Below are positions 3,001 to 59,448 of a stretch of DNA of 64,000 bases, in pieces. Both the position numbers and the translations under genes were made by a program. How positions within the stretch are numbered: position 1 is the stretch's first letter; each line of letters begins with the position of its first letter. The notes under the pieces are model-generated. The model saw only the letters and a program-made list of their open reading frames with translations, did not search any database and was not told where the DNA came from. The DNA is from Candidatus Saccharimonadota bacterium (lineage in GTDB: Bacteria; Patescibacteriota; Saccharimonadia; Saccharimonadales; Saccharimonadaceae). Location: NCBI GenBank assembly GCA_017511205.1, contig JAFWLE010000007.1, positions 367-64,366 of the forward strand, given 5' to 3'.

Positions 3001-5814
3001 GTTAAAGGCATGTGTAGTAGTAATAGCAGTAGGTGCAGTTCCTCCATTTACGGTCGCACCTGATGCATCGGTGCCGTCTGCCGTGAAGCCTGAAGCACTA
3101 TATTGTCTTATTGGTTTAGTAATGTTGGCAGAAAGTATGGCTGAATCATAAGTAGCATTTACGGAAGTAGAGCCAGCTGTGGTAGCGTTGGTGTTAGTAA
3201 GGGTGATGGTATATGTATTTGCTTTGCATATACCATATAGTACTAAGTTAGAAGTAGGAGTAATAGTTTGTCCAGAATCATAAGTGTAATTAGTCGCACT
3301 GCTATTAGTATCCCATCCACAAGTATATCCTGTCTTAGTAATAGTAGGAAGAGTTACTGAATGATCTGTCCATTGTGAGTATAAAGTTACGGCACTGGCT
3401 GTAGTATAAGTCCAAGCGGAAGAAGCATTAGTATAGGTTGTGCTTGGCTGTAAGGCTGGTGTAGTAGCACTAGATGCTACTTTAGTGCCGCCAGAAGTTG
3501 CTGTATACCAACCATTAAAGTCTGCCGTATTAGTAAGAGTACTAGTTGAAGAAATGGTTGCATTAGCTGCATTAGTCCCAGCGCTGAATCCTGATACTGT
3601 AAACTTCCTTTGTGGAAGAGTAATAGCAGATAGTGAGGTAGCTCCGTAGTTTACAGTAGCACTTGTAGAACCAGCAGTTGTAGCACCTGAGTTACTAAGT
3701 GTAATGTTATTAATACAGACACCATAAAGCGTTAAGTTCCCTGTTGGTGTAATGACCTTACCGGAAGTATAGTTAGAATCAATGGTGGTAGCCGAAGAGT
3801 TAGTACTCCAACCACAAGTAGCACCAGTCCTAGTAATAGTTGGAAGTGTAATGGTGGAGTATGATCCTGCACTGGCATCCCAACCAGCATATAATGTAGC
3901 TCCACTGGTTCTCGTCCATTTACTATTAGAATCTGTATAGCCAGATACACTTGGCTTTAGTGCTGGCGTAGTAGAGTTAGATGCCACGAGTGTACCGGTT
4001 CCCGATGTATCATGCCAGCCATTAAAGGTATATGTTACTGTCTGGTTGCTAGAAAGAGTTGAAGTAGATGAGACTGTGGCATTAGCACCAGAATCGGTTA
4101 GTGTAAAGCCAGATACTGTTCTAGTGTTTGTAGTATTAGCCTTAGTTGGATTAGTAATGGTAGAAAGGGTCGTAGAATCATATGTAGCTGTAGCTGAAGA
4201 AGATCCACCAGTCCCACCATTGTTGTTTAATGCCACTGTGTAAGTATTAGGTGAACAGACACCATAAAGTGTAGTGTTTCCAACTGGTGTGATATTACTA
4301 CCAGATGGATAAAATGGATTAGAGGCAGTCGTAGCACCAGTACTAATGGTAGTCCAACCACAAGTGTATCCAGTCTTAGTGATAGTAGGAAGCTTAATGG
4401 TTTGTGAGCTCCATCCAGCATAGATAGTTACGTTTCCGGAAGTATCAGTCCATTGTGAAGTAGCGTTAGTGTAGGTAGTGCTAGGTTGAAGTGCTGGAAT
4501 AGTACTATTGGTTGCGATGAGCTTGGAACTGTCATTATTATTAGCAGCCGTCTGAGTCTCATACCAACCAGTTAATGTATAAGTAGATTTACAGTTAGTA
4601 GCTGAAGTACAAGGGCCACTAGGTGTAGCATCATAGGTTACCGTAGCGCTATCGGCTTTATTACCGGAAGGAAGTGTAAAGCCTGAAACTGTATAGACCC
4701 TCTGGGGTTTAGTAATGAGAGACATATTAGTGTCTTTATATGTGACTGATGTATTATTAGAACCAGGTGTAGTAGCATTTGTCGCACTTAAAGCTACAGT
4801 ATAGGAATTAGCCTCCCATATAGCATGGAGGGTAATATTAGTATTATCAATGGTTTGGTCTATACCATAGTTAGAGTTAGCTGCGTATGTAGTACCACCA
4901 CAAGTTTGGTTACCAGTAATTGGATCATTAGTAGTGGCCACGTCACACCAGCCTCTAAAGGTATATCCAACCCTTGTAGGTGTTGCGCTGGATAATACTG
5001 TATAGCTCTGAGCTGCGGAAGTATCTCCTGCTATTTCAGCACTTTGTGGATTAGGTGAAGGCATATTATTAACTGTGTCTTCTGTGTTTTCATCGTAAGT
5101 AATGCTATAAACTATATTATTGGATACGGCTCTAATGATATACGTATTGCTATAAGATCCAGCTGGAAGAGTAGAAGTTACTCTAGCACCAATAGACAAA
5201 GTATAAGTATTATTGGAACTATTAGCTACATGTGTAATATCCAGAAGATCACCAGTTGTAGTTGGTGATGGCAAGAAGTTAGTATTATTAGTAATAGTTT
5301 GTGGTGTAGAGCCACTACTATCTATATACTGACTAGGCTTATAGCCCCACTTATCGTTATAGGCCGTACCAGAAGAATCGGAAAAAGTAGCTTCCGAAAC
5401 AGCCGAATTAAGAGTATAAATCTCATGGTTAGATGAATCAGTTAGACTAGTGGTATTATTACTAGCTGCAATAGAAAGAGTATAGCCTGTGAAGTTATCC
5501 GTCCTTACTGTAATAGCAGCATCTGATGATTTACCAAATACTCCTGTGGCACCTGGCAGAATATCTACCGAAAGTGTATCGGTACTGACACCAAGAGTGA
5601 GAGTAGCTTTTTTGGCTTCGGCAAAAACATTAGAAGCATTCAAATCACTAAAACTAACCAAAGCTACAACTAAGAAAACACCCAGGAAAGAAGCTAAAAA
5701 ATTGAACCAAGAATAAGATTTAACAGTGGAGGACACAAAATGCCAAGCACCTCCACAGCGCCTAGCTACAAATCTCAAAGATCTGGGCTTATTAGCCTCA
5801 CTCCACTTACTCAT
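1..5814 (-). CDS. Giant secreted or cell-surface repeat protein of at least 1938 aa, built from tandem Listeria-Bacteroides-repeat (Flg_new / InlB B-repeat-like) modules. The 3' end runs off the window.
   Basis: I scanned plus-strand triplets in register 1-3, 4-6 and so on across 1-1680 and 4441-5814 and found no tta, cta or tca. The middle was translated by eye without stops. The ATG at 5814-5812 follows an in-frame TAA (5817-5815), and GGAGGT lies 14 nt upstream. The N-terminus MSKWSEANKPRSLRF... has a hydrophobic anchor WFNFLASFLGVFLVVALVSF and a cleavage-like VFA/EA site. The body repeats YTVTLN..GG..ATYDST..P.K...VSGFT...YTFNGW(H/Y)...LYAGW alternating with LPTITKTGYTCGW...LYGVC. The ORF is missing from the supplied track because it has no stop inside the window. 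Confidence 0.85.
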   Translation of the reverse strand, partial: MSKWSEANKPRSLRFVARRCGGAWHFVSSTVKSYSWFNFLASFLGVFLVVALVSFSDLNASNVFAEAKKATLTLGVSTDTLSVDILPGATGVFGKSSDAAITVRTDNFTGYTLSIAASNNTTSLTDSSNHEIYTLNSAVSEATFSDSSGTAYNDKWGYKPSQYIDSSGSTPQTITNNTNFLPSPTTTGDLLDITHVANSSNNTYTLSIGARVTSTLPAGSYSNTYIIRAVSNNIVYSITYDENTEDTVNNMPSPNPQSAEIAGDTSAAQSYTVLSSATPTRVGYTFRGWCDVATTNDPITGNQTCGGTTYAANSNYGIDQTIDNTNITLHAIWEANSYTVALSATNATTPGSNNTSVTYKDTNMSLITKPQRVYTVSGFTLPSGNKADSATVTYDATPSGPCTSATNCKSTYTLTGWYETQTAANNNDSSKLIATNSTIPALQPSTTYTNATSQWTDTSGNVTIYAGWSSQTIKLPTITKTGYTCGWTTISTGATTASNPFYPSGSNITPVGNTTLYGVCSPNTYTVALNNNGGTGGSSSATATYDSTTLSTITNPTKANTTNTRTVSGFTLTDSGANATVSSTSTLSSNQTVTYTFNGWHDTSGTGTLVASNSTTPALKPSVSGYTDSNSKWTRTSGATLYAGWDASAGSYSTITLPTITRTGATCGWSTNSSATTIDSNYTSGKVITPTGNLTLYGVCINNITLSNSGATTAGSTSATVNYGATSLSAITLPQRKFTVSGFSAGTNAANATISSTSTLTNTADFNGWYTATSGGTKVASSATTPALQPSTTYTNASSAWTYTTASAVTLYSQWTDHSVTLPTITKTGYTCGWDTNSSATNYTYDSGQTITPTSNLVLYGICKANTYTITLTNTNATTAGSTSVNATYDSAILSANITKPIRQYSASGFTADGTDASGATVNGGTAPTAITTTHAFNGWYTATSGGSKVIDNSTNGALVANVSDYTGAGGIWQRANTATLYAQWGSGSSVTFPTITKTGYTCGWSKTKTASDFTYSSGQANVVLDASTAGTYYGICKINTYTITFTGDSNVNNFTVDGSTVAKNGTKNLTYGQTYAITINYNSGYIAGDTPLEKTSGAGTVSGTNFTVGAGIATLKANSKANSYTVTLNRNCPTSATAGSTSTTATYGATALGAITTPACSNTVDTRTVSGFSKTSSATNATVTYGTSTSNCTSASNCKSINTTTYSFNGWHDTSGTGTLVATTAAIPALKPSVSGYTNANSEWTRTTAATLYAGWNSSSTGYNTVTLPTITLTGYTCRWQDKNSTSTYYDSGATITPSTSIELQGVCSPNTYTVTLNNNGGTGGSSSATATYDSTTLSTITNPAKANTTNTRTVSGFTLTSSGANATVSSTSTLSSTQTVTYTFNGWHDTSGTGTLVASNSTTPALQASVSGYTDSNSKWTRTSGATLYAGWDASVGSYSTITLPTISRTGATCGWSTNSSATTIDSNYTSGKVITPTGNLTLYGVCVNNITLNNNGGTGGSASTTVNYGATALSTITNPTKANTTGTRTISGLAANGTNASGATVTFQTSGNCTSTSNCKSTNTTTYTFNGWYKEAANTNKIANNATTPALMPGTTYTSAGSQWTYTAAEAVTLYAGYTASAGAFATVTLPTITKTGYTCGWDTNSSATNYTYNSGATITPTGNITLYGICKANTYTVNLNNNTGTGGSSSTTATYDSTTLAAITNPTKANTTGTRTISGFNKATSANDATITYPSSGCTSATNCKSTNTTTYTFNGWHQTSTQTSTLIADTIASAPALQASTAYTNSSKQWTDTSGTVTLYAGYTASSGAYSSITLPTITLSGHTCHWNTNSSDTGTSYNSGASMTPGSDLTLTGFCSPNTYTITLDRNGGNTGSTSTTVTYGNTTLGSITTPTKPNTTNTRTVSGFTLTNSGANATVSSTSTLSSNQTVTYTF
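1330..1896 (-). repeat. Copy A of a 567-bp in-frame segmental duplication inside the giant surface-protein gene
   Basis: It is colinear with 3697-4263 at a constant offset of 2367 nt at the start, middle and end. Positions 1397-1466 match 3764-3833 perfectly (70 nt). Overall identity is roughly 90 percent by eye. Confidence 0.8.
3697..4263 (-). repeat. Copy B of the 567-bp in-frame segmental duplication
   Basis: See copy A. The length is 189 codons and I saw no indels. Confidence 0.8.
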
Positions 5815-6338: not shown

Positions 6339-7193
6339 TTATATCCGCTTCTTCCCCATGCGTGATTTCATAATTCCAGTTCGCATCGAAAGACCAGTTC
6401 GAGAAGTCGAACTTGCTTTAATCGAAGGACTAGATTTCGAATTATCAGTAGCTTTAGTCACAGGCTTTGGTTTAATTGCAGCCCTACGAGTAGGCATCAA
6501 ACGACGCCGTGCCGATCTCTCACGAACTGATTTACCACCAGACTTCGCTGCCCGTTTTTTTGCTGCTTCATTGTCACGAATAATCTGCTCTTCAATCCGC
6601 GCCGTAGTAGCCGTCGCCGCCTCGGTATCGCCAGAATTTTCGTAAATCGCTAAGATTTGCCGTAAGGTCGCTACTTTAGGATCCAGTTCATAGGCATTTT
6701 CAAGTGCATCAATCGCTTTTTTGATATTTCCCATTTTTTCTTCTGCCTTCGCAAGCGCAATATACCGCGCTGGCACGTCACCCTCCAAACTAATCGCCTG
6801 TCGAAAAGCCATCGCCGCCTTTTCATAAGCCCCCGTCTCCAGATAAATCAGCCCCGCATTATGAATTGAAGCCGGATTATTATCGAGCGACTGCGCAATT
6901 TCAAAACATTCCACCGCCTGATCATAGCGCTGGCTCTTAGCATACAAAATCCCCAGCCGGTTGTAAGCTGCCGCATTTTTTTCATCAAATTTCAAAATCG
7001 TAAGAAGTGCTTTTTCTGCCCGGAAAGGCTTCCGCTCGCGCATCGATGTCTGTGCAATCTGCCAAAGTTTCTTCATTTGAGCAGTATATTTAGCCGATTT
7101 TTCTTCAACGGGCTTGACTTTTTCTTCCATCGGGAAGAAAAAACATAGATATACCACGAAGACCAAAATAACTAGCACAGCTATCATGCTCAT
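6339..7193 (-). CDS. Membrane-anchored TPR-repeat protein with a basic C-terminal tail
   Basis: It has an N-terminal TM segment (IAVLVILVFVVYLCFFF). Tandem TPR-like 34-aa units follow (AAAYNRLGILYAKSQRYDQAVECFEIAQSLDNNP, ASIHNAGLIYLETGAYEKAAMAFRQAISL, and so on). Confidence 0.75.
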   Translation of the reverse strand: MSMIAVLVILVFVVYLCFFFPMEEKVKPVEEKSAKYTAQMKKLWQIAQTSMRERKPFRAEKALLTILKFDEKNAAAYNRLGILYAKSQRYDQAVECFEIAQSLDNNPASIHNAGLIYLETGAYEKAAMAFRQAISLEGDVPARYIALAKAEEKMGNIKKAIDALENAYELDPKVATLRQILAIYENSGDTEAATATTARIEEQIIRDNEAAKKRAAKSGGKSVRERSARRRLMPTRRAAIKPKPVTKATDNSKSSPSIKASSTSRTGLSMRTGIMKSRMGKKRI

Positions 7194-7196
7194 ATT

Positions 7197-7850
7197 TTAA
7201 CATAAGTTGGCAATAATTTGAAGTTTCAGATGGCCGTTTTGCAAAATCCTCTCGTAAACTGTCAAAAACTTCGTAAGTTTAGCTAAAAAAATCGGCTTTT
7301 TGGTCGAAAAATATGCCTTATATAACATCTGAATAGCCGCGTCAAGCACTATCAGAACATCTTCGCGTTTTTTTCTTGCCGTAATTTCATCAGCAAGTCC
7401 AGGTAAATCAGAATTTTTCGCCACAAGCAATCTTTTTGCCAAATTTTTCGTCTTTTCATCCACTGAAATTTTATCAAAATCCAATTTTTCGCGGTAAAAA
7501 TAAATTTCCGACCGACTAAGGATCGTCGGTAAAATCGCCGAAATTTCACTCGTTAACAAAATAAAATGAGTTTTTTCTTGCGGCTCTTCTAAGGTCTTCA
7601 GAAGCGCATTTGCCGCTTCTTCATTCATTGACTCCACGCGGTCAATCACAATTATCTGATCATTAGTTTGCTTCAAACCAAGTTTAGCAAGAAGTTCCCG
7701 CACCTGCTGGATCGTGATAGTCTTTTTTTCCTCCGGCTGCAAAACATACGCATTTTTTAGCTCTAATTTAAAATCTTTCGGCACTACAAAAATTGCCGTG
7801 CCGCATTTCAAAGCAATCTCAGGAATTAAAGAAAGCTCATCGAAAAACAT
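7197..7850 (-). CDS. holB: DNA polymerase III delta-prime subunit
   Basis: The motifs LLKTLEEPQEKTHFILLT and ILPTILSRSEIYFY are typical of HolB. I chose the internal Met (MFFDELS) at 7850 because the longer ORF, starting at 7898, overlaps the upstream gene by 62 nt. Confidence 0.8.
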   Translation of the reverse strand: MFFDELSLIPEIALKCGTAIFVVPKDFKLELKNAYVLQPEEKKTITIQQVRELLAKLGLKQTNDQIIVIDRVESMNEEAANALLKTLEEPQEKTHFILLTSEISAILPTILSRSEIYFYREKLDFDKISVDEKTKNLAKRLLVAKNSDLPGLADEITARKKREDVLIVLDAAIQMLYKAYFSTKKPIFLAKLTKFLTVYERILQNGHLKLQIIANLC

Positions 7851-8718
7851 TTTCAAAATCCTTTGGCAAGGGCGCCACAAAAGTTTTCCTAACTCCACCC
7901 GGCAAAGTAATCTCTAGCTCCTTCGCATGCAAAAACAGCCGTTCCGCCTTACCATCACCATAGACCGTATCACCCAGAATCGGATGACCCAAATATTTCA
8001 AATGTACCCTCAGTTGATGCGTCCGCCCCGTCGTCGGCCTCAGCTCAACCATCGAATATTGCTCATTTTCTTTCAAAACTTTATAAAAAGTCTCAGCTTC
8101 CTTACCGTTCGGATCAATTTTAAAGGTTGTCGGCCGCTTTAAATCGCGTGCCATCGGCAAATCAATACGCGCTTCCTTAAGTCTCAAAGAACCTACTACC
8201 ACGGCAATATATGTCTTATGCGCCTTGCGTTCCTGAAACTGTTTTTTCAAAAACCTCTGCGTTTCTTCGTCTTTCGCAAGAATCATCACGCCAGAAGTAT
8301 CGCGATCCAGTCGGTGAACTAAAAGCCCATAATGTTCCAAAGTATTCTCCGGACAATATTCGCCCTTCGCCATACTCAAAAGCCCAGCCGGCTTATTCAC
8401 CACTAGCACCTTTTTATCCTCGTAAATCGTTTCCGGCACCAGGTCAGCATTTTTCATCACCTGCGGAATCCGAAGACCAATTTTCACATCACGCTCGAAT
8501 TTCGTATTTGGCTTTTTCACTAATTCGCCATTCACCGTTACAAACCCATATTCGATAAACTTCTGGATAGTCGAACGGTTGTAGCTCTTAAAAATTTCGC
8601 TCATCAGAAGATCCAAACGGATTTTTTCGACCGCCTGTGTTTCTTCCGGTAAAGCTTTGTCACCATTAATCACGCGCGACATTTCCGGCTTGCTAAATTT
8701 CTTTCCTGTCCGAATCAT
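7837..8718 (-). CDS. rluD: RluA/RluD-family 23S rRNA pseudouridine synthase with an N-terminal S4 domain
   Basis: It carries the catalytic motif HRLDRDTSGVMILAK. Further motifs are GRTHQLRVHL and an S4-like N-terminus (RLDLLMSEI...VTVNGELVK). Confidence 0.85.
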   Translation of the reverse strand: MIRTGKKFSKPEMSRVINGDKALPEETQAVEKIRLDLLMSEIFKSYNRSTIQKFIEYGFVTVNGELVKKPNTKFERDVKIGLRIPQVMKNADLVPETIYEDKKVLVVNKPAGLLSMAKGEYCPENTLEHYGLLVHRLDRDTSGVMILAKDEETQRFLKKQFQERKAHKTYIAVVVGSLRLKEARIDLPMARDLKRPTTFKIDPNGKEAETFYKVLKENEQYSMVELRPTTGRTHQLRVHLKYLGHPILGDTVYGDGKAERLFLHAKELEITLPGGVRKTFVAPLPKDFENVFR

Positions 8719-8787
8719 ATTTTACCTAAGTCAAATAACATCTTAATACTTTCATTTTATCACATTTCGTGTTAAAATTAAAAAGTC

Positions 8788-8864
8788 GGGGCGTTAGCTC
8801 AGTTGATTAGAGCGCTACTATGGCATAGTAGAGGTCGCGAGTTTGACTCTCGCACGCTCCACCA
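8788..8864 (+). tRNA. tRNA-Ala (anticodon GGC) with encoded CCA
   Basis: I folded the cloverleaf by hand: acceptor GGGGCGT/ACGCTCC with the G3:U70 Ala identity pair, anticodon stem CTACT/AGTAG, loop ATGGCAT, T arm GCGAG-TTTGACT-CTCGC, and a CCA end. Confidence 0.93.
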
Positions 8865-8897
8865 CGGAGAAAGATTTAGGGGAAATTGAAACTAGCG

Positions 8898-8923
8898 AAA
8901 AATAAGCCGTAGGCTTATTTTTT
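8898..8923 (+). terminator. Intrinsic terminator downstream of tRNA-Ala(GGC)
   Basis: The hairpin is AAAAATAAGCC-gta-GGCTTATTTTT, with an integrated T run. Confidence 0.7.
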
Positions 8924-9077
8924 AATTTGGGAGAGTATCGACCAAAATGAACTTGTTCATTTTGGACGTATACGAACCCAAATTAAAATAACGAAGTTTT
9001 TTCGATAGTTTCTATTTCAAAACGCCCGACAGCGGAAGACATTTTGCTTTAGCAAAATGTCTACCACAGTCAAGCAT

Positions 9078-9884
9078 CTATATCGCTTTTGCATAAAGCA
9101 CAAGTCTTTGCGTAGCATCCCCACCACCAAGTGGCTGACCCGCACAAGTCATAATTGCAAGATCATAAGACACGCCTGCATCATAATCATAAGCTCTAGC
9201 AATACTATTCATATAATTTTTCTTACCACCGTTACGCCTAAGAGCACCATTAGCCGTCGAATTATCCTTATCGTAATACACCTTACTGCCCACTCTGTAA
9301 GTCGTCTCACGACCATTCACCCTCACTACAAATGTCGAACCCACGCCTAATCTAGAAATACCGCCAAAAATCGAAGCATAGTTATGACCATAAAGGAGCT
9401 TCTGAATCCGATTCACGTGGTTACCAGAATCCACTACACTACTCACGTTTACAATTTCAATCGTATTCCCCGCAATTGTAATCGAATTAGCTGGTGCTGC
9501 AGGCTTTGGAGCAGGTTTAGAAGCAGGCTGAGCTGCCGGCTTTGCCGTGTTAGTAGCTGGTTTAGCCGTTTGAGTTACCGGCTTAACACTAGACTTCTGT
9601 ACTGATTTAGCAGTTGTCTGAGCAGCAGATTGCGTAGCATTTGCAGCAGGTTTTTCATTGTTTTCGACCGCTTTTTCTTCAGACTTTTCAGTCTCTTTTT
9701 CAGCCTCCAAAAAACCTTCCTTCGAATTATCGTCTATCTTTACTGGCTCTTCAGAAACTTCCGCGGTAGCAGCCACATCATCATCCTCAGATAACGAAGC
9801 AGAATCAGTAGGCACAAAAAGGCTACCTAAACCAAATAAACCTAAAACCCCCGTTAAAACCATCAAAAAAAGGCTCTTCGCCAT
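9078..9884 (-). CDS. Sortase-like transpeptidase (class E/F-like) with an N-terminal TM anchor and an Ala/Pro/Lys-rich linker
   Basis: Its order of conserved residues parallels the second sortase in the window: GHN (LLYGHNYASIF), a TLxTC-like LAIMTCAG, and a distal Arg (QRLVLYAKA). The start was moved to MAKSLFLMV (9884), which has GGGAG upstream. Confidence 0.65.
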   Translation of the reverse strand: MAKSLFLMVLTGVLGLFGLGSLFVPTDSASLSEDDDVAATAEVSEEPVKIDDNSKEGFLEAEKETEKSEEKAVENNEKPAANATQSAAQTTAKSVQKSSVKPVTQTAKPATNTAKPAAQPASKPAPKPAAPANSITIAGNTIEIVNVSSVVDSGNHVNRIQKLLYGHNYASIFGGISRLGVGSTFVVRVNGRETTYRVGSKVYYDKDNSTANGALRRNGGKKNYMNSIARAYDYDAGVSYDLAIMTCAGQPLGGGDATQRLVLYAKAI

Positions 9885-10019: not shown

Positions 10020-10985
10020 ATGAACAAGTTTGATGAAAAATATATCGACCTCTGTCGACGTATCCTAAAAGAAGGCGAGGAAATCACTAATTACGCCAAA
10101 ACCGACCAGAGGAAGAAAAGTGATGCCTCGGCCATGCCTTTTCATAAAGCTCAAGGAGAGCAAGGTTCCGAAACCATCAGATTACCTCATCAAATTTTCC
10201 AATTCGACCTCGAAGAAGGATTCCCTATTCTCACCTCTAAAAAAGTAGCATTTAAAACATCTGTTCTAGAGCTGCTGTGGATTTTTCAAGTTGCTTCAAA
10301 CGATGTTCGGTGGCTAAAAGAACGTGGTGTCAAAATTTGGGACGAATGGGAAATCTCTGAAAAGGGCATCTATCAGGGGCGAAATATCAATCAAATCTTC
10401 CAAAAAAATCACCAAAACGAGCCAAAAACCGACTTTGCCCACACTATTGGTACCGCTTACGGCTGGATCGTTAGCCGCTATAATCTCGTCGAAAACCTCA
10501 TTGCTACCCTCAAAAATACCCCTGGCAATCGCCGCATGGTCCTTTCACTCTGGCAAAACGAATGGCTCGAAACCGCCGCTCTTCCCTCTTGCGTCTGGAA
10601 TTCAGAATGGAACCTCACCAATGGCCGCCTTAATCTGTTAGTTAATTCCCGCTCCTCTGATGTACCCCTAGGGCTCCCCTTCAATATCGTCCAATACGCA
10701 ATTTTTGATTATTTGATTGCTAGAACCATCGGTGCAAAACCCGGTCTCTTTACCTTTATCACCAACGACGCCCATATCTATAAAAATCAAATCCCCGGTA
10801 TTAAGGAACAAATCCGCCGCTATGACGAAGCAGTCAAAACTCACACGTTACCAAAACCTCCCAAGCTTTGGCTCAACCCCGAAATTAATGATTTTTACGC
10901 CTTTGATAACTCCAAAGACTTAAAAGATATCAAACTAATCGATTATAATCATCTTGGCGCCATCAAAATGCCAGTTACGGAGTAA
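10020..10985 (+). CDS. thyA: Thymidylate synthase (ThyA type)
   Basis: The motifs RRMVLSLWQ, LPSCVW, SRSSDVPLGLPFNIVQYA and NDAHIYKNQ match the ThyA active-site regions. Confidence 0.92.
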   Translation: MNKFDEKYIDLCRRILKEGEEITNYAKTDQRKKSDASAMPFHKAQGEQGSETIRLPHQIFQFDLEEGFPILTSKKVAFKTSVLELLWIFQVASNDVRWLKERGVKIWDEWEISEKGIYQGRNINQIFQKNHQNEPKTDFAHTIGTAYGWIVSRYNLVENLIATLKNTPGNRRMVLSLWQNEWLETAALPSCVWNSEWNLTNGRLNLLVNSRSSDVPLGLPFNIVQYAIFDYLIARTIGAKPGLFTFITNDAHIYKNQIPGIKEQIRRYDEAVKTHTLPKPPKLWLNPEINDFYAFDNSKDLKDIKLIDYNHLGAIKMPVTE

Positions 10986-10986
10986 A

Positions 10987-11460
10987 ATGTTTACAATCAT
11001 CGCTTGTATCGGCCAAAATCGAGAGCTAGGAAAAGACAATAAACTCATTTTTCATCTCAAGGACGATCTAAAATTTTTCCAAGAAACTACGCTAAACCAC
11101 AAAGTCGTCATGGGGCGAAAAACCTGGGAATCCCTGCCCCAAAAGCTCAAAAATCGCGAAAGCATCGTAATCTCGCGTCAAAATTTTGCGGGCCCTGACC
11201 TAATTGTCCACAATTCAGATGAATTCATTGAAAAATTTCAAAACACCCCCGAAGAAATTTTCATCATCGGCGGAGCAACCATCTACCAGAAATTTCTTCC
11301 CTTTGCAAAGTCGATTTATCTCACAGAAGTAGATACCCCAGAACCTACTGCTGACGCCTTTTTCCCTGTTTTTGACAAATCTAATTATTCTAGTAAACTA
11401 ATTAAAAAAGGCACTGAAAATGGTCTAAGCTATCAGATAACTCGGTATATTAAAAACTAA
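10987..11460 (+). CDS. folA: Dihydrofolate reductase
   Basis: MFTIIACIGQNRELGKDNKLIFHL...VVMGRKTWESLP...IFIIGGATIY is the typical DHFR signature. The ATG lies 1 nt after the thyA stop. Confidence 0.9.
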   Translation: MFTIIACIGQNRELGKDNKLIFHLKDDLKFFQETTLNHKVVMGRKTWESLPQKLKNRESIVISRQNFAGPDLIVHNSDEFIEKFQNTPEEIFIIGGATIYQKFLPFAKSIYLTEVDTPEPTADAFFPVFDKSNYSSKLIKKGTENGLSYQITRYIKN

Positions 11461-11507
11461 ATTTAAATTCCAAATGGACTTAATTTTACTTATAAAGAAA
11501 GGAAAAA

Positions 11508-12875
11508 ATGAAAGATTTAGTGTTTGACCTGATAAAACAAGAGAAAACCCGCCAAGAAGAAGGCCTAGAACTAATTCCCAGCGAAAACTACGTTTCTCCT
11601 GCTGTTCTCGCTGGAATGGGTTCGATTTTAACCAACAAGTATTCCGAAGGCTATCCAAGCTTCGAAGGTATCCCCGGCTGGGATGAAGCCAAAATTTCCC
11701 AAGAAATCCTTCCCAACTACCGCTATTATGGCGGCCAACAAAATGTCGATCGAATCGAGCGCCTAGCTATTAGCCGCGCTTGCCAGCTTTTTCATGCTGA
11801 TCACGCCAACGTCCAGCCCCACTCTGGCGCCCAAGCCAATAATGCTGTATACTTTGCCTGGCTAGAGCCCGGCGACACGGTACTTGGCATGTCACTTCCC
11901 GCTGGCGGGCATCTGACCCATGGCGCCTCTGTCACTCAAAGCGCCAAAATTTACAATTTTGTGAATTACGGCGTCACAAAAGACGGCGATATTGATTACG
12001 ACGAGCTCGAATCACTGGCAAAGAAGCACCATCCCAAAGTCATTTTAATCGGCTATTCTGCCTTTATGAAAATCCCTGATTTTGCCCGTGTCGCCAAAAT
12101 CCGCGATGATCTTTCAAAAGAAACCGGCGAAGAAATCCTACTAATGGCCGATATGGCTCACGTCGCTGGTTTAATCGCCGGTGGCGTTCATCCTAACCCT
12201 CTAGATTATGGCTTTAATGTGATGACCACCACTACGCATAAAACTTTACGCGGTCCTCGTGGCGGCTTAATATTAACAAAGGGTAACGTCGCTTCCCCTC
12301 TAAAAAAACCCGAAAAAACTCTGAAAAATATTCCTATTTTAATTGATCGTGCAGTCTTTCCGGGCACTCAAGGAGGACCACTAGAGCACATCATCGCCGC
12401 AAAAGCCATCGCCTTCGGCGAAGCCTTAAAGCCCGAGTTCAAAATTTACGCTAAAAACATCGTTGAAAACGCCAAATCTTTAGCCGAGGCACTGAAAAAA
12501 GAAGGCTTCATTCTCCAAGGCAACGGCACCGAAAACCATCTTATTCTCGTCGACATCAAAAAAAGCTTCGATATCGACGGCAAGTTCTACGAACAAGCTC
12601 TCGACCAAATTGGACTAACATTGAACGCCAATGCTTTGCCTAGCGACCCCTCCGGGTCCTTCCGTCCTTCCGGCGTCCGACTCGGCACCCCCGCTATGAC
12701 CACCAGAGGCCTTGGCGAAGCTGAAATGTCCCAAATCGCCACCTGGATGAAAAAAGTTGCTATCATCTGCCAAAAAGCTGGCTCTATCGAGAATCTCCCG
12801 AATTTTCAATCCGACCTCGATGCCCTCCGTGCCGAAGTCCGCACTCTTGCCCTGCGCTTCCCCCTTCCAGAGTGA
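11508..12875 (+). CDS. glyA: Serine hydroxymethyltransferase
   Basis: [15 protein letters not shown]...NKYSEGYP and the PLP-lysine region [14 protein letters not shown] are present. Confidence 0.95.
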
Positions 12876-56052: not shown

Positions 56053-56123
56053 AATCTTAAAACTAATTTTTGGAGGAATTAGCGAAAGCGTCGACAGCCG
56101 ACAAAAATAGTTTTAAGATTCTA
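56050..56123. terminator. Convergent-gene terminator structure: a 16-bp perfect inverted repeat whose arms contain both stop codons
   Basis: TAGAATCTTAAAACTA (56050-56065) pairs with TAGTTTTAAGATTCTA (56108-56123). The 42-nt loop has its own GTCG-acagc-CGAC hairpin. Confidence 0.6.
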
Positions 56124-57443
56124 TTGCAATGATTGTATATATAGTAATAGTTCTTCTTTAACGAAGTCGTCTTTCACTAATTCTAGCTCTTTCATGAAAA
56201 TTGGTGCCAAACGTTTTAGCCTCTCCTGACGGTATTTTTCATACGCTTCCGCTTCTGACTCCGATAAAGTATCAGGAAAATTCCGCCCTTTGTAATGAAG
56301 CAGCAGTTCTGGTAATCTTTCGTCGATAAAATCTGGGTGAAAATCAGCGAGTTCCTTCGGGCTAGCATTCCTCACCGCCGCCACTTTAATTCGATCCGCA
56401 TCATTGAGAAATCCATCGTATAACGCTTCTTCTGGCTCCAAAGCCTTCGGAAATTCCGGTCGGTTTTCAAATTCGCCCCGCATTTGCTCTGCAAACTCCG
56501 GATGTTTCAAAAGAATCTGCAAATTCTTTTCGACTTCCTCCTTTTCCAGCCCAATTTTCTCCCAGCCACCGTCATCTAAAACCGCAAGCGGTGCTACCGC
56601 CGGGCATTTATTAAAGCATAATTCTTTCACGATCGGGAAATAATTATCCGAAAGATCTTCCAGATTATAACGTAGATCATACACTAATACATTTCCATTT
56701 CGTCCCGCCGTCAGCGGTACTGCCACAGTAGATTTATTGAATTCGTTAGCATATCTTCCCGACGCATATACAAACGGTCTTTTGTCGTCCAAATTTACCA
56801 ATTTCTTTACGGCATTTTTCTCCCGCATTTTGTAAAGAAAATCAAATAGCTTCGGTTGCTTTTCCTTAATCATCTTCGCCACCGCAATCGTCGCAAATAC
56901 GTCAGAAAGTGCATCGTGCGCATGCTCATGCGAAAGTCCATTTAGTTTTGTCAAAAGCTCCAAACGATTCGTCGGCGCTCCATCCTCACGAAACGGCCAT
57001 TCGATTCCTTCCGGCCTAAGCGCCCGTGTCATCCTTACTACATCTAGCATGTCCCAACGCGATCTACCATCCTTCCACTCCCACTCATACGGATCATAAA
57101 AATTCCGCCAAAAAATCGCCCGCATAAATTCATCATCAAACCGCACGGTATTATAGCCTACCGCCACTGTTTCCGGCACAAATACTTCTTCCGTCACGTA
57201 TTTGCAAAACTCTGCTTCACTTATCCCATCCATCAAAGTCTTTTGTGGCGTGATCCCCGTCACATTGATTGCTCCTGGGCTCGGCAAAGCATCATCCGTC
57301 ATTTTCACTAGAATGTTCACCGGCTCACCGATAGGGTTCAAATCCAAATCCGTTCGCTGTCCCGCAAACTGCATAATCCGATCTTCCCGTGGCTTCAGCC
57401 CGCTCGTCTCAAGATCATAAAAGAAAAACGTTTTTTTACTCAT
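56121..57443 (-). CDS. sbcB: Exodeoxyribonuclease I
   Basis: The N-terminal DnaQ-like exonuclease motif is FFFYDLETSGLKPREDRIMQFAGQRTD...GEPVNILVK...LPSPGAINVTGITPQ, which parallels ExoI. 440 aa. Confidence 0.85.
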   Translation of the reverse strand: MSKKTFFFYDLETSGLKPREDRIMQFAGQRTDLDLNPIGEPVNILVKMTDDALPSPGAINVTGITPQKTLMDGISEAEFCKYVTEEVFVPETVAVGYNTVRFDDEFMRAIFWRNFYDPYEWEWKDGRSRWDMLDVVRMTRALRPEGIEWPFREDGAPTNRLELLTKLNGLSHEHAHDALSDVFATIAVAKMIKEKQPKLFDFLYKMREKNAVKKLVNLDDKRPFVYASGRYANEFNKSTVAVPLTAGRNGNVLVYDLRYNLEDLSDNYFPIVKELCFNKCPAVAPLAVLDDGGWEKIGLEKEEVEKNLQILLKHPEFAEQMRGEFENRPEFPKALEPEEALYDGFLNDADRIKVAAVRNASPKELADFHPDFIDERLPELLLHYKGRNFPDTLSESEAEAYEKYRQERLKRLAPIFMKELELVKDDFVKEELLLYIQSLQ

Positions 57444-57589: not shown

Positions 57590-57745
57590 TTAACCCTCCT
57601 TTCTCCTGCCATTAAGTTTTTAATTTGCGCCAATCTCCCTTTCCTCTAGCCTATATATCACAACCGCACCCAAATTACAACCCCCACCAGGATCAATTAA
57701 TTATACTCACGGTTGCTAGGCGAGACGGATGCTAGGCCCTCTCGC

Positions 57746-57767
57746 GACCGCGCTTTAGGGCGCGGTC
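57746..57767. other. GC-rich 8-bp hairpin 49 nt downstream of the FISUMP gene stop
   Basis: The hairpin is GACCGCGC-tttagg-GCGCGGTC. It has no adjoining U run on the minus strand and sits in a GC-rich patch (about 57705-57770) of an otherwise AT-rich spacer. Confidence 0.5.
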
Positions 57768-57816
57768 ACTTAAGATTTTCATGTATGCGGCAGACAAGGA
57801 ACTTAAAAAGGCAAAA

Positions 57817-59289
57817 CTAGGAATCTAGCAAGCACCTCATTGAGAGTCCGTAGTAGCGACCGTAGCCGTACGTGGGGTTGACACTGCTTGAATACACGCT
57901 GAGGTCGTACATGATGCCGTCACTGCGCCTAGTAGAAGACCAGAAGTTGCCGCCCGTGCCCTGATTGTACGCCGAGCCACTGCCGAAGAGGCCCGACAGA
58001 GGAGTAGAAAGATTATATTGGAGGCTAGCGGTATTTGTTGCAGTTTGAGTAGTATTATAGTAACCATACAATGAATTATACTCACCACTAGAGTCACCAG
58101 TAGGCATTCTCCAGCCAGCCGGGCAAAGGTCTTCAGTGGCATTGCCAGAACTGGTGCCTTCACTTTTACCATTACCATAGCAGTAAGAGCCTGCAGATGC
58201 GGCACAGTAGTTGTAATATATTCCGATTTTACCACTACCATTACCATAGCTGGTGGTAGTTTGATCTTTGTAAGTGGAGATAGTCATAGGTACACTATAA
58301 AAGTTTTGGGAATTAGAAGACCAGGTCTCGTTATTGAGCGGTGCAGTTGGATATTGATCAGAAGTGGTACCACCACCATTCTTAAGATAGCCAAGTGATG
58401 TAGTAGAAGCGTTAGTGTTGCTGGCCGTAGTGTTATTCAGAACAGTTGAATCAGTAAGGTCTAATCTTAAGTTATCTAGAAGCCATAGATTTCCGTCTTT
58501 TAGTTTGGATACGCAGTATGGTTCCTCATCACGAGAATCTCTTAAGTAATATGGGGCTTCTTCAGTGAGGCTAGCTAGAACGGAAGCTTTATTGGAACTA
58601 TTGATATCCTGCATATACTTCACGCCCGGAACTTTAGTACTACAAGTTTCTGGTGGTGTAGGACCATCTTCTGTTTCCGGACTAGTCACCGCATAGAAGG
58701 TAATGATATTGGTATAAGTTCCGGCAGCCTGACTCGTAGAAGCCTTAGCACCTATTTTAAATTTGATAGATTGATTGTCTGCTGGACTAGTAGTTTCTAT
58801 TAAGGCTTTACCAGTAGCACCTTCATCATCATTATCTTTAGGAAGTCCTGAATAATTAGACCAAGTAGAACCATTATCATCTGAAATACGATAGCCCCAA
58901 GTATTGTCTGTGGAGAGACTAGCTAGACTAGCATTAGTAGCAATGCTAGTGAATTTGTAGTTACTATTCTCTGTATTTACAAGATCTGTATTAGTAGATG
59001 AAGTACCAGCTGTAGCAGTGAGATAATAGCCATAGGTAGCGTTAGTAGTGACACTTACTGTGAGTATATTACTATCTGCTACGGAGCCTGGAGTGAGGTT
59101 ATTAATGATCAGATCTGTACTAGCAGTATCAGAAGAAAGATTGATGGAAATAGTGGGGTTAAAGGTAAAGGAGACGTCGACATTATCCTGATAAGTCACG
59201 GCAGAAGTATCTATCACCCCTAAAAAGCCGCAAAAAACCGCCAGCATCAAAGCCAACGAACTAATTCTTACCAATTTTATACTTGTCAT
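57817..59289 (-). CDS. Secreted surface protein with an N-terminal beta-rich module shared with the giant protein and a C-terminal Fibrobacter-succinogenes-major-paralogous (FISUMP, TIGR02145-like) domain
   Basis: It has a signal or TM segment (ISSLALMLAVFCGFLGVI). FISUMP landmarks are YCVSKLKDGNLWLLDNL, GIYYNYCAA, LCPAGWRMPT, NFWSST and the terminal GLSMRCL. The start is set at MTSIKLV (59289), with AAGGGGAA upstream. Confidence 0.8.
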   Translation of the reverse strand: MTSIKLVRISSLALMLAVFCGFLGVIDTSAVTYQDNVDVSFTFNPTISINLSSDTASTDLIINNLTPGSVADSNILTVSVTTNATYGYYLTATAGTSSTNTDLVNTENSNYKFTSIATNASLASLSTDNTWGYRISDDNGSTWSNYSGLPKDNDDEGATGKALIETTSPADNQSIKFKIGAKASTSQAAGTYTNIITFYAVTSPETEDGPTPPETCSTKVPGVKYMQDINSSNKASVLASLTEEAPYYLRDSRDEEPYCVSKLKDGNLWLLDNLRLDLTDSTVLNNTTASNTNASTTSLGYLKNGGGTTSDQYPTAPLNNETWSSNSQNFYSVPMTISTYKDQTTTSYGNGSGKIGIYYNYCAASAGSYCYGNGKSEGTSSGNATEDLCPAGWRMPTGDSSGEYNSLYGYYNTTQTATNTASLQYNLSTPLSGLFGSGSAYNQGTGGNFWSSTRRSDGIMYDLSVYSSSVNPTYGYGRYYGLSMRCLLDS

Positions 59290-59448
59290 AATCGCACCAT
59301 TCCCCTTATAACTACCATTATACATTAGCACTTTTATTTACACAATAGTTTTTTACAAAAAATCTCCACAAAAATGCATAAAAAATTCCCCCGAGGCGTC
59401 CATTCTTAAAATGTTACCCCGAGGGATTTTGAAAGGAAAGTGAGATGT

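Follow-up and report, generated by a model that had tools for sequence, protein, structure and literature searches.

The target gene and its product

The window, by which we mean the whole 64-kb stretch of DNA analyzed here, carries on its minus strand a gene (57817-59331, hereafter the target gene) that has a GTG start codon; an in-frame ATG at 59325 gives 502 aa (the protein is given as 502/504 aa). The product is a secreted or surface protein composed of an N-terminal hydrophobic signal or anchor, a beta-sandwich domain (residues ~55-215) and a C-terminal FISUMP-like (Fib_succ_major/TIGR02145) ligand-binding domain (residues 230-502; 57820-58638, minus strand), which was delimited by profile matches, AF2 and Foldseek. 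The protein has more than 1,300 homologs, every one of them from gut or rumen Saccharibacteria, and the 324 relatives found in the GTDB representative genomes indicate a very large paralog family. The window is 99.93% identical to ENA scaffold_105, and so represents a different assembly of one and the same strain.

A first-pass annotation of the window had described the product as a FISUMP surface protein, and comparison supports a FISUMP-type C-terminal domain. The TIGR02145 match covers the entire model (E 2.2e-8) with 35 bits, which is below the cut-off of 41.65, and the PF09603 match reaches 21.9 bits, below a cut-off of 33.9 that many homologs of the protein do pass; the domain is a divergent FISUMP member. 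The AF2 model of the full-length protein has a pLDDT of 88 and that of the C-terminal domain alone one of 97.2. The best match of the latter in BFVD, according to Foldseek, is the model of a phage "Fibrobacter succinogenes major paralogous domain" protein (E 6.5e-5), and the full-length model yielded only weak pilin-like matches to the N-terminal domain. The C-type-lectin-like fold that the same annotation had anticipated was not borne out by modeling: searching the PDB by Foldseek with the C-terminal model of pLDDT 97 gave nothing at E <= 0.001, and hence no significant match to a solved CLec-fold variable protein. The best PDB neighbor, the Legionella Lcl C-terminal (DUF1566) domain, was not significant (E 0.49, TM 0.36), Mtd and TvpA were absent among the top 50 PDB matches listed, and a profile search of PDB sequences with the target protein gave no match. 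The FISUMP/DUF1566/CLec2 variable regions (VRs) constitute a published class of targets of diversity-generating retroelements (DGRs) (PMC5758913), and it is by this literature grouping of FISUMP/DUF1566 VRs that the target domain would be assigned to CLec2.

A switch in composition at the 3' end of the gene

The codon usage flip that had first drawn attention to the 3' end of the gene was recounted exactly: 32 of the last 61 sense codons end in C, tyrosine is encoded six times by TAC versus once by TAT, and GGC accounts for 8 of the 10 glycine codons; among the preceding 50 codons only 10 end in C, and TAT is used four times versus TAC once. The GC counts per 60 nt were likewise reproduced for 57841-58020 (33, 36 and 31), and the next segment, 58021-58080, was found to contain 20 rather than the 22 originally given, which is a minor correction. 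The last 61 codons have a GC3 of 0.75, a C3 of 0.52 and an A content of 0.19; the corresponding values for the remainder of the gene are 0.31, 0.21 and 0.30. When 2,598 sliding 61-codon windows covering 34 genes of the 64-kb window were considered, none reached the GC3 of the tail, 0.2% reached its C3, and 1% were equally poor in A. The switch begins at the same codon as the shared block described below. The NNC signature is absent from a paralog of the same organism (P0012, on L003), showing that the composition of the tail is not a family-wide trait.

Four genes share a sharply delimited block that coincides with the tail

Alignment of the window locus (L001) with L002, L082 and L101 delimited what we call the type-A VR cassette (57789-58011, minus strand), the presumed footprint of homology to a template repeat (TR). 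Counted from the last nucleotide of the stop codon, the block reaches 195 nt into the gene and 28 nt downstream. Its edges are abrupt at -195 and +28 in the four-way alignment, and it is located at the 3' ends of four genes from two species: the target gene and P0009 (L101) in the species of the window, and those of L002 and L082 in RGIG5768. The VR-like variation proposed for the C-terminus is real in the sense that the tail coincides with this block, and that the copies differ almost exclusively at codon positions 1 and 2. P0009 has the same block boundaries as the target gene, with other variable codons, and the 28 nt that follow the stop codon of the target gene are AT-rich.

The hypervariable part of the VR (57840-57998, minus strand), as defined by the differences between L001 and L002, consists of about 25 NNC/NNT codons that are embedded among invariant scaffold codons (LSG.F..GSA..QG..G.FWSSTR ... 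R..G.S.RC). Within these 159 nt, L001 and L002 have 36 mismatches, all 36 of which affect codon positions 1 or 2 and none position 3; outside the variable part there are 5 mismatches in 370 nt upstream and none in the next 51 nt downstream. The alignment of all four type-A copies has 54 variable and 167 invariant columns. Codon positions 1 and 2 account for 45 of the 53 variable coding sites, and at 44 of the 54 variable columns at least one copy has an A; a few third-position C/T differences among the copies are not explained by adenine mutagenesis. The residues found in the VR are dominated by the 15 amino acids that can be reached from AAC. As deduced from these comparisons, the ~25 NNC/NNT codons would correspond to AAC or AAT in the template. 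On L082, a stretch of AAC/AAT codons, RNNDNNMYNLNVN, has remained unmutated and is the same as in the deduced TR; the deduced type-A TR reads CCTCAGTCGGGCAACTTCAACAGTGGCTCGGCGAACAATCAGGGCACGAACGGCAACTTCTGGTCTTCTACTAGGAACAATGACAACAACATGTACAACCTCAACGTGAATTCAAGCAGTGTCAACCCCACGAACAACTACAATCGCAACAACGGAAACTCAATGAGGTGC.

Two further observations concern the recent history of these copies. Over 465 aa, two alleles of a sister type-A gene, P0126 and P0002, differ at 18 VR residues and nowhere else, and each of the changes falls on a codon deduced to contain A in the template. The VR of the target gene itself is identical in all three of its protein variants (P0001, P0121 and P0122; five contigs), so that no ongoing diversification of this copy was observed. 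It should be noted that the C-terminal 690 nt of the target gene are, outside the variable sites, 98.6% identical to a non-orthologous gene of RGIG5768, which is itself a mosaic, whereas housekeeping genes of the window organism and RGIG5768 are only ~78-79% identical.

DGR cassettes in related Saccharibacteria

Contigs of related Saccharibacteria contain complete cassettes composed of a FISUMP-type target gene, an accessory gene of about 320 aa, a DGR-type reverse transcriptase (RT) gene and a template rich in Asn codons. On L045, 24 of the 25 mismatches between the VR (8291-8590) and the TR (11253-11552) are located at adenines of the TR, and the same applies to all 23 mismatches between the TR and VR of L085. 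These two cassettes with adenine-specific mismatches indicate, by sequence comparison, that the protein family of the target is a DGR target in related Saccharibacteria. TRs with Asn codons adjoining an RT gene are also present on L096, L097, L105 and L106, and six Asn-rich TRs have been called as ORFs in public assemblies of other Saccharibacteria. The orientation and position of the TR differ between cassettes, being inverted in L085, L097 and L106. The L045 RT contains the motifs IGNYTSQ...YVDD, matches RVT_1 (E 1.2e-16) and aligns with Brt of BPP-1 (E 9e-21). The accessory ORF is conserved (309-326 aa), has no match in Pfam or NCBIfam, and gave a probability of 0.1 when compared with BPP-1 Avd by hhalign. 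Avd is not universal among DGRs.

RGIG5912 contains, away from its cassette, four paralogs having 9-20 non-adenine mismatches to the TR of that genome, and fossil VRs are therefore common in this FISUMP-type family. In addition, L065 resembles a decayed cassette, containing remnants of the accessory gene and no RT gene.

These data bear on the view that no retroelement is involved. The tail would then be a hypervariable loop region under positive selection, distinct in composition and shuffled by gene conversion among many paralogs, or else a GC-richer segment acquired horizontally. The size of the paralog family, its clear mosaicism and the failure to find a TR for this copy (see below) would fit such a scenario. 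However, neither selection nor conversion predicts that 36 of 36 differences affect codon positions 1 and 2 next to a fixed C or T at position 3, nor that the repertoire is dominated by residues reachable from AAC. The same architecture is demonstrably made by adenine-specific copying of a TR on L045 and L085, Asn-codon versions of the same scaffold exist in the form of TRs, and P0012 does not have the NNC signature. This view is already disfavored, and we consider it highly improbable.

A conserved stem-loop module downstream of the gene

The GC-rich hairpin noticed earlier 49 nt past the stop codon is present as described (57746-57767, minus strand). Pattern searching and folding identified an 8-bp stem, GACCGCGC/GCGCGGTC, that encloses a 6-nt loop (CCTAAA) and starts 21 nt beyond the end of the VR block; the pattern occurs once in the window, against an expectation of zero. 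A motif scan and alignment showed that the hairpin belongs to a conserved 3' module (57739-57782, minus strand) in which ATGAAAATCTTAAGT is followed by the stem-loop and GCGAGAG, and which begins 6 nt beyond the VR block. This module lies in a conserved intergenic element (57648-57780, minus strand) that is shared with the syntenic locus L004 of another species, with 88% identity over 133 nt as compared to 75-79% for the flanking coding sequence. The element has no family match in Rfam, at either gathering or E-value thresholds.

The possibility that the hairpin is specific to this locus, being shared only by the syntenic L004 and lacking at L002, was rejected, since the same module occurs with different stems behind cis-DGR targets. 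The composite motif has 20 occurrences in the 2.9 Mb formed by the window and the loci, always 39-74 nt past the stop codon of a VR or after a TR, and includes sites behind two verified cis targets. The other loci have five different perfect stems at the module position, and RNAalifold found compensatory changes at 4 of 9 pairs. The hairpin is one element of a conserved module whose stems covary and which is only seen 3' of these VR or TR repeats, in line with the proposed association with DGRs. Guo et al. are said to have described, in 2011, a hairpin/cruciform downstream of VRs. The stem-loop module is most likely the target-recognition hairpin, which would mark a recipient site.

Alternatively, the hairpin may not be a DGR element but a terminator or attenuator, a 3' RNA-processing site, or the 5' leader of the accessory-RT operon that was copied along with duplications of the target. 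This is a serious alternative, although we consider it less likely than not. In cis cassettes the module is always located directly upstream of the accessory gene, on L096 it follows a stand-alone TR instead of a VR, 47 of the 54 VR loci lack a strong perfect hairpin within 150 nt, and the module is missing at L045 as well as at L002, whose allele shows recent VR change. Arguing against this alternative, the stem in the window is followed by GCGGGAAAA and no U-tract, and the module is kept behind VRs lacking a downstream accessory or RT gene (window, L004, L012, L083 and L102). Moreover, only a few nt separate the start of the module from the end of TR homology in the window and on L085, and the stem begins about 20 nt past that end, a position that resembles the one reportedly occupied by hairpins or cruciforms 3' of VRs.

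Search for the template and the reverse transcriptase

As reported in the first-pass annotation, the window contains no TR and no RT gene: BLAST of the VR against the 64 kb returned only chance 11-mers and no TR-like copy, and no frame contains a Y-x-DD reverse transcriptase motif. Neither was an RT gene found on the contigs that carry the target gene, including within 10 kb of it, and no RT match lay on a contig of corresponding length; both TR and RT would be located outside these carrier contigs of 130-170 kb. A 47-nt pattern of the deduced type-A TR, with wobble Ns, had no match in the GTDB representative genomes, which include the type-A carrier RGIG5768, the JGI metagenomes or IMG/VR. 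A more general mid-TR pattern had no match in IMG/VR and one in the JGI metagenomes (L096), which is a genuine TR of another type that is 83% identical to the deduced one. When mis-called TR ORFs were searched with the deduced TR peptide, the six Asn-rich ORFs were retrieved, none of which is of type A. The contigs of eight RT lineages (P0170, P0168, P0166, P0162, P0167, P0155, L045 and L096) do not contain a type-A TR, and their TRs are 74-84% identical to the deduced type-A TR; none of the NCBI accessions checked for ten RT clusters is from the IKF92 or IKF20 MAGs. An Avd-type accessory protein was not found, the related cassettes having the unrelated 309-326-aa ORF instead.

These results may be taken to mean that the tail is a fossil or an imported VR, which was written by a DGR elsewhere or not recently, arrived by recombination between paralogs or species, and is now ordinary DNA in an organism lacking a type-A TR and RT. 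We view this as possible, but less likely than not. Besides the searches, it is in line with the invariance of the target gene's own VR over five contigs, with the 98.6% identity to the mosaic RGIG5768 gene, and with the relic-like VRs of RGIG5912 and the apparently decayed cassette of L065. It is less easily reconciled with the presence of a second type-A VR in the same species, P0009, that has different variable codons within the same boundaries, with the intact recognition-type module behind the target gene, or with the VR-only allelic change in the sister gene. In addition, the copies still agree at every scaffold position, from which it follows that little time has elapsed since writing. 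Finally, contigs with an RT gene are mostly 2-3 kb long, which explains why binned genomes lack it, and such absence from bins is to be expected.

Discussion

We propose that the block at 57789-58011 is probably a VR that was written by a DGR, and that the target gene is a non-adjacent target of this element. According to this proposal, an RNA copy of a TR rich in AAC/AAT codons would be converted into cDNA by a DGR-type RT, which inserts wrong nucleotides opposite adenines of the template, and the mutagenized cDNA would replace the 3' end of the gene. About 25 codons would thereby be turned into random NNC/NNT codons, changing ligand-contacting residues of the secreted FISUMP-type domain, whereas the scaffold codons would be copied faithfully from a template that avoids A, which would account for the higher GC3 and lower A content of the tail. 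The TR and RT would be located outside the 64-kb window and the 130-170-kb carrier contigs.

The variable-region interpretation put forward originally agrees with the VR-type variation, the cassettes in the family and the allele pair differing only in the VR; comparison, rather than an identified template, supports it. Adenine specificity for the window's own VR copy is inferred from related copies. We consider it slightly more likely than not that this organism possesses a type-A TR and RT that are still acting on the window's copy. The points that count against a DGR are that the type-A TR was not found in any collection searched and that the VR of this gene is invariant; further ones are the fossil VRs of RGIG5912, the third-position C/T differences and the AT-rich sequence after the stop codon.

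The VR-bearing target gene belongs to a known kind of system, being a CLec2/FISUMP-class DGR target in CPR bacteria. Among its nearest known counterparts is the DGR of Legionella pneumophila with the target LdtA (CLec2 VR class; DUF1566/DUF823/Fib_succ_major category "d"; Wu et al. 2018, PMC5758913). As in LdtA, the VR forms the very C-terminal end of a protein exposed at the surface, whose variable domain has weak, mixed Fib_succ_major/DUF1566 matches, and codons of the AAC type are scattered through a conserved scaffold ending in ...G.S.RC. Unlike in Legionella, the host is a CPR bacterium of the epibiont type, its target family has many paralogs per genome, the accessory protein of the related cassettes is an unrelated one of ~320 aa and not Avd, and there is no TR or RT adjacent to the target gene. 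Remote targets have been described for non-phage DGRs (PMC5758913). The system is similar to the TvpA DGR of Treponema denticola, which has several remote targets, in that one type of TR apparently serves several scattered genes (for type A, at least two in the window's species and two in RGIG5768); it differs in that the TvpA VR is of the FGE-sulfatase/CLec1 type and that the Treponema TR and RT are known, all targets matching the TR save at adenines, whereas the type-A TR was not found in the collections searched.

The mutagenic retrohoming logic would be the same as that of BPP-1 (mtd/avd/TR/brt), the RT of the relatives aligning with Brt including IGxxTSQ and YxDD, and a GC-rich stem-loop is present shortly 3' of the VR in both. 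In contrast to BPP-1, there is no Avd homolog, the orientation and position of the TR vary between cassettes, and the element is cellular and not phage-borne; the target gene shows no evident GC-rich IMH, the 28 nt after its stop codon being AT-rich.

DGRs of CPR/Patescibacteria were reportedly described by Paul et al. in 2017. The present system resembles the CPR/Patescibacteria clade (DGR clade 2; Roux et al. 2021, PMC8144416; PMC11661182), whose members are cellular, restricted to Patescibacteria and diversify surface proteins in reduced genomes. The CPR DGRs surveyed are mostly aquatic and have a single adjacent target, whereas here we are dealing with animal-gut Saccharibacteria, a multi-paralog FISUMP family and non-adjacent VRs. 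Surveys of DGRs in metagenomes detect only VRs that adjoin an RT gene and by design miss remote targets (PMC8144416).

More speculatively, gut and rumen Saccharibacteria might possess a DGR that combines a non-Avd accessory protein of ~320 aa, a TR that may lie on either strand or stand alone, a stem-loop address tag ("TTAAGY - stem-loop - GCGGGAA") that would license scattered FISUMP paralogs as targets, and VR-bearing C-terminal modules that are exchanged between paralogs and between species. As a whole, we regard this combined reading as rather less likely than not.

Saccharibacteria are obligate epibionts that need to attach to specific host bacteria. A secreted FISUMP-type family whose binding tips are rewritten by a DGR would be an obvious candidate for a determinant of host range. 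The RT and TR reside on unbinned contigs of 2-3 kb because TR/VR repeats break assemblies and, since surveys need RT adjacency, remote targets remain invisible unless they are recognized from the VR signature alone. The VR in the window was recognized in this way and illustrates this known blind spot; both the template sequence deduced here and the conserved 3' module are concrete handles for locating the rest of the system. If the combined reading is true, this would mean that an epibiont with a 1-Mb genome keeps an array of host-binding tips, each of which can be rewritten independently, from one small retroelement.

The variable tail of the window gene, a probable DGR target

The probable target gene lies on the minus strand at 57817-59331, as seen from the ORF and its translation, and carries the putative variable region (VR) at its 3' end. 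With the ATG at 59325 as start, the gene encodes 502 aa, with a hydrophobic N-terminus (signal or anchor) and the C-terminal sequence ...FWSSTR...GLSMRCLLDS*. In the last 61 codons GC3, C3 and A content are 0.75, 0.52 and 0.19, versus 0.31, 0.21 and 0.30, respectively, in the remainder of the gene. The change is abrupt, with its boundary between the codons CCT and CTG TCG GGC, and none of the 2,598 sliding 61-codon windows taken from the 34 genes of the window matched the GC3 of the tail. Recounting reproduced the codon figures of the first-pass annotation (32 C-ending codons, six TAC versus one TAT and GGC for 8 of 10 Gly in the last 61 sense codons; only 10 C-ending codons in the preceding 50) and its G+C counts per 60 nt, except in the bin 58021-58080, which holds 20 rather than 22. 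The tail would be poor in A and dominated by C/G-ending codons because its scaffold was copied from an A-avoiding template of which the adenines were randomised. A paralogue from the same sample (L003, 10001-11515; P0012) has an N-terminal half nearly identical to that of the window protein and a different C-terminal domain, and in its tail, where GC3 is 0.40-0.55, there is no NNC/GC3 signature; this signature is therefore no family-wide compositional trait.

The pattern of variation was obtained by comparison with L002, a non-orthologous paralogue that is 100% identical to a contig of RGIG5768, another species; between RGIG5768 and the window organism, housekeeping genes share only about 78-79% identity. 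When the two genes are aligned from the stop codon, with positions given relative to its end, there are 5 differences from -553 to -183, 36 from -182 to -24 and none from -23 to +27, and the sequences are unrelated from +28 onward. All 36 differences fall on codon positions 1-2 and none on position 3, which, together with the sharp edges, bears out the VR of the type made by diversity-generating retroelements (DGRs) that had been proposed at 57817-58003. This block (type A, 57789-58011) recurs with identical edges in L082, from RGIG5768, and in L101 (P0009), from the window's own species, neither of which can be aligned ungapped with the window gene 5' of -195. Across the four genes 167 columns are invariant and 54 variable; codon positions 1-2 hold 45 of the 53 variable coding sites, and an A is present in at least one copy at 44 of the 54 columns. 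The deduced type-A template, with all variable sites set to A, encodes ...SGNFNSGSANNQGTNGNFWSSTRNNDNNMYNLNVNSSSVNPTNNYNRNNGNSMRC. It is very likely that a DGR wrote the tail of the target gene. It should be noted that L082 (JAFWIK010000017.1) has, at about 5057-5095, nine unmutated AAC/AAT codons in a row, RNNDNNMYNLNVN, between mutated codons, a run that is unexpected under uniform adenine mutagenesis along one cDNA.

Protein family and predicted fold

For the target protein, over 1,300 homologues were retrieved, and those with a named source are all from Candidatus Saccharibacteria MAGs, mostly from ruminant gut assemblies. An ENA sheep-gut scaffold matches the window at 99.93% identity, and the NCBI 'IKF92' MAG encodes the same protein without a single difference. 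The C-terminal 270 residues gave below-threshold matches to TIGR02145 (FISUMP; 35 bits, E 2.2e-8) and PF09603 (FISUMP; 21.9 bits), and the viral model closest to the very confident AlphaFold model of the C-terminal domain (pLDDT 97.2) is that of a phage 'Fibrobacter succinogenes major paralogous domain' protein (E 6.5e-5). The domain is therefore FISUMP-type. No solved structure matched the model significantly, the top one being the C-terminal (DUF1566) domain of Legionella Lcl (E 0.49). The C-type-lectin-like fold expected by the first-pass annotation would thus rest on a grouping in the literature, in which the Fib_succ_major, DUF1566 and DUF823 VRs form the 'CLec2' class, to which 14% of curated DGRs belong, Legionella LdtA being an example (PMC5758913). 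The N-terminal beta-sandwich domain (58680-59160, residues about 55-215) weakly resembles the chaperone-usher pilin subunits CfaB and FimF/G (Foldseek E about 1e-3, TM about 0.47 on the target), and this modelled likeness could mean that the variable tip is displayed on a fibre- or pilus-like structure.

DGR cassettes in related Saccharibacteria

With the C-terminal domain as query, 324 relatives were retrieved from the GTDB representative genomes, nearly all of them in animal-gut MAGs labelled as Saccharibacteria or Nanosyncoccus. A complete cassette is present in L045 (RGIG5912): a FISUMP target gene (6732-8480), an accessory ORF (8655-9611; 318 aa), a reverse transcriptase (RT) of 437 aa with the motifs IGNYTSQ...YVDD, and a 300-nt repeat of which the second copy, the template repeat (TR; 11253-11552, plus strand), encodes ...NNGSPNNQGSNGNWWSSTRNNNNNMYNLNANTSNINPANNNNRNNGNSVRC. 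Of the 25 mismatches between its TR and VR, 24 are on TR adenines. Alignment with BPP-1 Brt gave E 9e-21 for the RT, which, as a query, retrieved more than 1,300 relatives, mostly on 2-3-kb contigs. In the P0170 cassette (L085) all 23 TR/VR mismatches are on TR adenines, and the homology stops about 27 nt past the stop codon, the position at which the type-A block also ends. Further Asn-codon TRs adjoin RTs in L096, L097, L105 and L106, and six TRs are annotated as ORFs in public assemblies. At the level of sequence, the FISUMP-type family is demonstrated to be a DGR target in related genomes.

In every cassette of the L045-type RT clade, a conserved ORF of 309-326 aa separates the RT from the target (or TR); the copies in L085 (3039-4004), L095 (3075-4004), L096 (1348-2286, minus strand) and L097 (2024-3004) are 39-51% identical to that of L045. 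Neither Pfam nor NCBIfam gave a match for the ORF, which has no detectable similarity to BPP-1 Avd and may represent a new DGR accessory protein family. The orientation of the TR varies: in several cassettes it lies 3' of the RT on the strand opposite to RT and VR (minus strand in L085, 5364-5545; L097, 4338-4532; L106, 2251-2300), and in L045 and L105 (2139-2312, plus strand) it is on the same strand. In L096 (ERZ842401 NODE-8858, 40-2604, minus strand) the order is TR, stem-loop module, accessory gene and RT; the roughly 7 kb available upstream contain no FISUMP gene, the neighbour being a membrane protein, and the targets of this DGR must be non-adjacent. An RNase J gene, absent from the window, lies directly 5' of the cassette or of a FISUMP paralogue in several species (L045, 3530-5734; L085-L087, 1-1039; L049; L060; L062), which suggests a conserved ancestral insertion site.

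The 3' hairpin module

The hairpin reported at 57746-57767, GACCGCGC-CCTAAA-GCGCGGTC, was confirmed and occurs once in the window. It is located within an intergenic element of 133 nt, which shows 88% conservation with L004, the syntenic locus of another species, is better conserved than the flanking CDS and has no Rfam family match. Common to L004 and absent in L002, the hairpin had been taken as locus-specific, a view overturned by folding the 3' flanks of more loci. The window, L004, L012, L083, L102 and the cis targets of the verified cassettes L085 and L097 have one 3' architecture, in which the end of TR homology is followed by (A)TGGAAAAAYTTAAGY, a perfect 8-11-bp stem-loop and GCGGGAAAA. 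The stems vary by locus (GACCGCGC, GCAATCTCGC, GCGGACCC, GCCCCGCACC, GCAATTCCTGC), each pairing perfectly, and RNAalifold found compensatory changes at 4 of 9 stem pairs in an unrefined alignment. In 2.9 Mb (window plus loci) there are 20 copies of the composite motif, every one 39-74 nt past a VR stop or, in L096, past the stand-alone TR. By analogy, the module would fit the hairpin/cruciform that, as Guo et al. reportedly described in 2011, marks DGR recipient sites. This role is a putative one; the module also sits just 5' of the accessory gene in cis cassettes, follows the TR in L096 and is absent from L002, L045 and most other VR loci. Beyond the module, the intergenic stretch 57648-57738 (GGGCCTAGCATCCG...TTGTAATTTGGGTGCGGTTGTGATATATAGGCT), part of the 133-nt element, could include a promoter or leader for the exonuclease I-like gene at 56121-57443.

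Is the window gene still a target?

As the first-pass annotation had stated, the window contains neither TR nor RT: there is no second copy and no Y-x-DD motif in any frame. The copy with adenine-confined mismatches whose search it had proposed was not found either, since a 47-nt type-A TR pattern had no relevant match in the GTDB genomes (RGIG5768 included), JGI metagenomes or IMG/VR, and a mid-TR pattern had none in the latter two; the TRs that belong to eight RT lineages share 74-84% identity with the deduced type-A TR. The contigs carrying the window gene or its paralogues have no RT, and none of the RT accessions checked derives from the IKF92 or IKF20 MAGs. Most RT contigs, as judged from the RT match list plus L089-L094, L098-L100, L105 and L106, are 2-3 kb long and have the accessory gene or the TR, and hence the VR/TR repeat, at one of their ends. 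In the organisms concerned, assembly and binning systematically split off the DGR cassettes.

This loss is one point in favour of a TR and RT elsewhere in the genome that still act on the window VR. Such a remote system is also favoured by the presence, in the same species, of another type-A VR that differs in its variable codons, the perfectly kept scaffold codons, the intact 3' module and the sister gene in L002, of which two alleles (P0002 and P0126; 465 residues) are identical but for 18 residues, every one in the VR, the sequence signature of a recent VR replacement. Against it, besides the unfound TR and RT, the window VR has the same sequence on all five contigs carrying the gene, and the C-terminal module clearly moves between paralogues and species by recombination. 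We consider the chance that the tail is a still competent remote target to be a little better than even.

As to the mosaics, over 690 nt at the C-terminal end the window gene (57789-58479) and L002 (10736-11426) are 98.6% identical outside the variable sites, and the N-terminal half of L002 (10084-10757) is 94.7% identical to another paralogue, L012; judging from these alignments, paralogues, and also different species, seem to exchange binding modules by recombination. RGIG5912 paralogues distant from the cassette have 9-20 non-adenine mismatches to the RGIG5912 TR, and fossil VRs therefore exist in the FISUMP-type family. In L065, accessory-gene fragments (10597-11168) lie directly 3' of a FISUMP gene and the next 4 kb lack an RT, so that this locus is possibly a decayed DGR cassette.

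Both DGRs in CPR bacteria and FISUMP/DUF1566-class VRs have been published (PMC5758913, PMC8144416, PMC11661182), and the window VR is not new in kind. Its setting is less familiar: the hosts are animal-gut Saccharibacteria, the targets are numerous scattered paralogous recipients, the accessory protein has no Avd similarity, and a variable TR orientation is combined with a conserved stem-loop tag.
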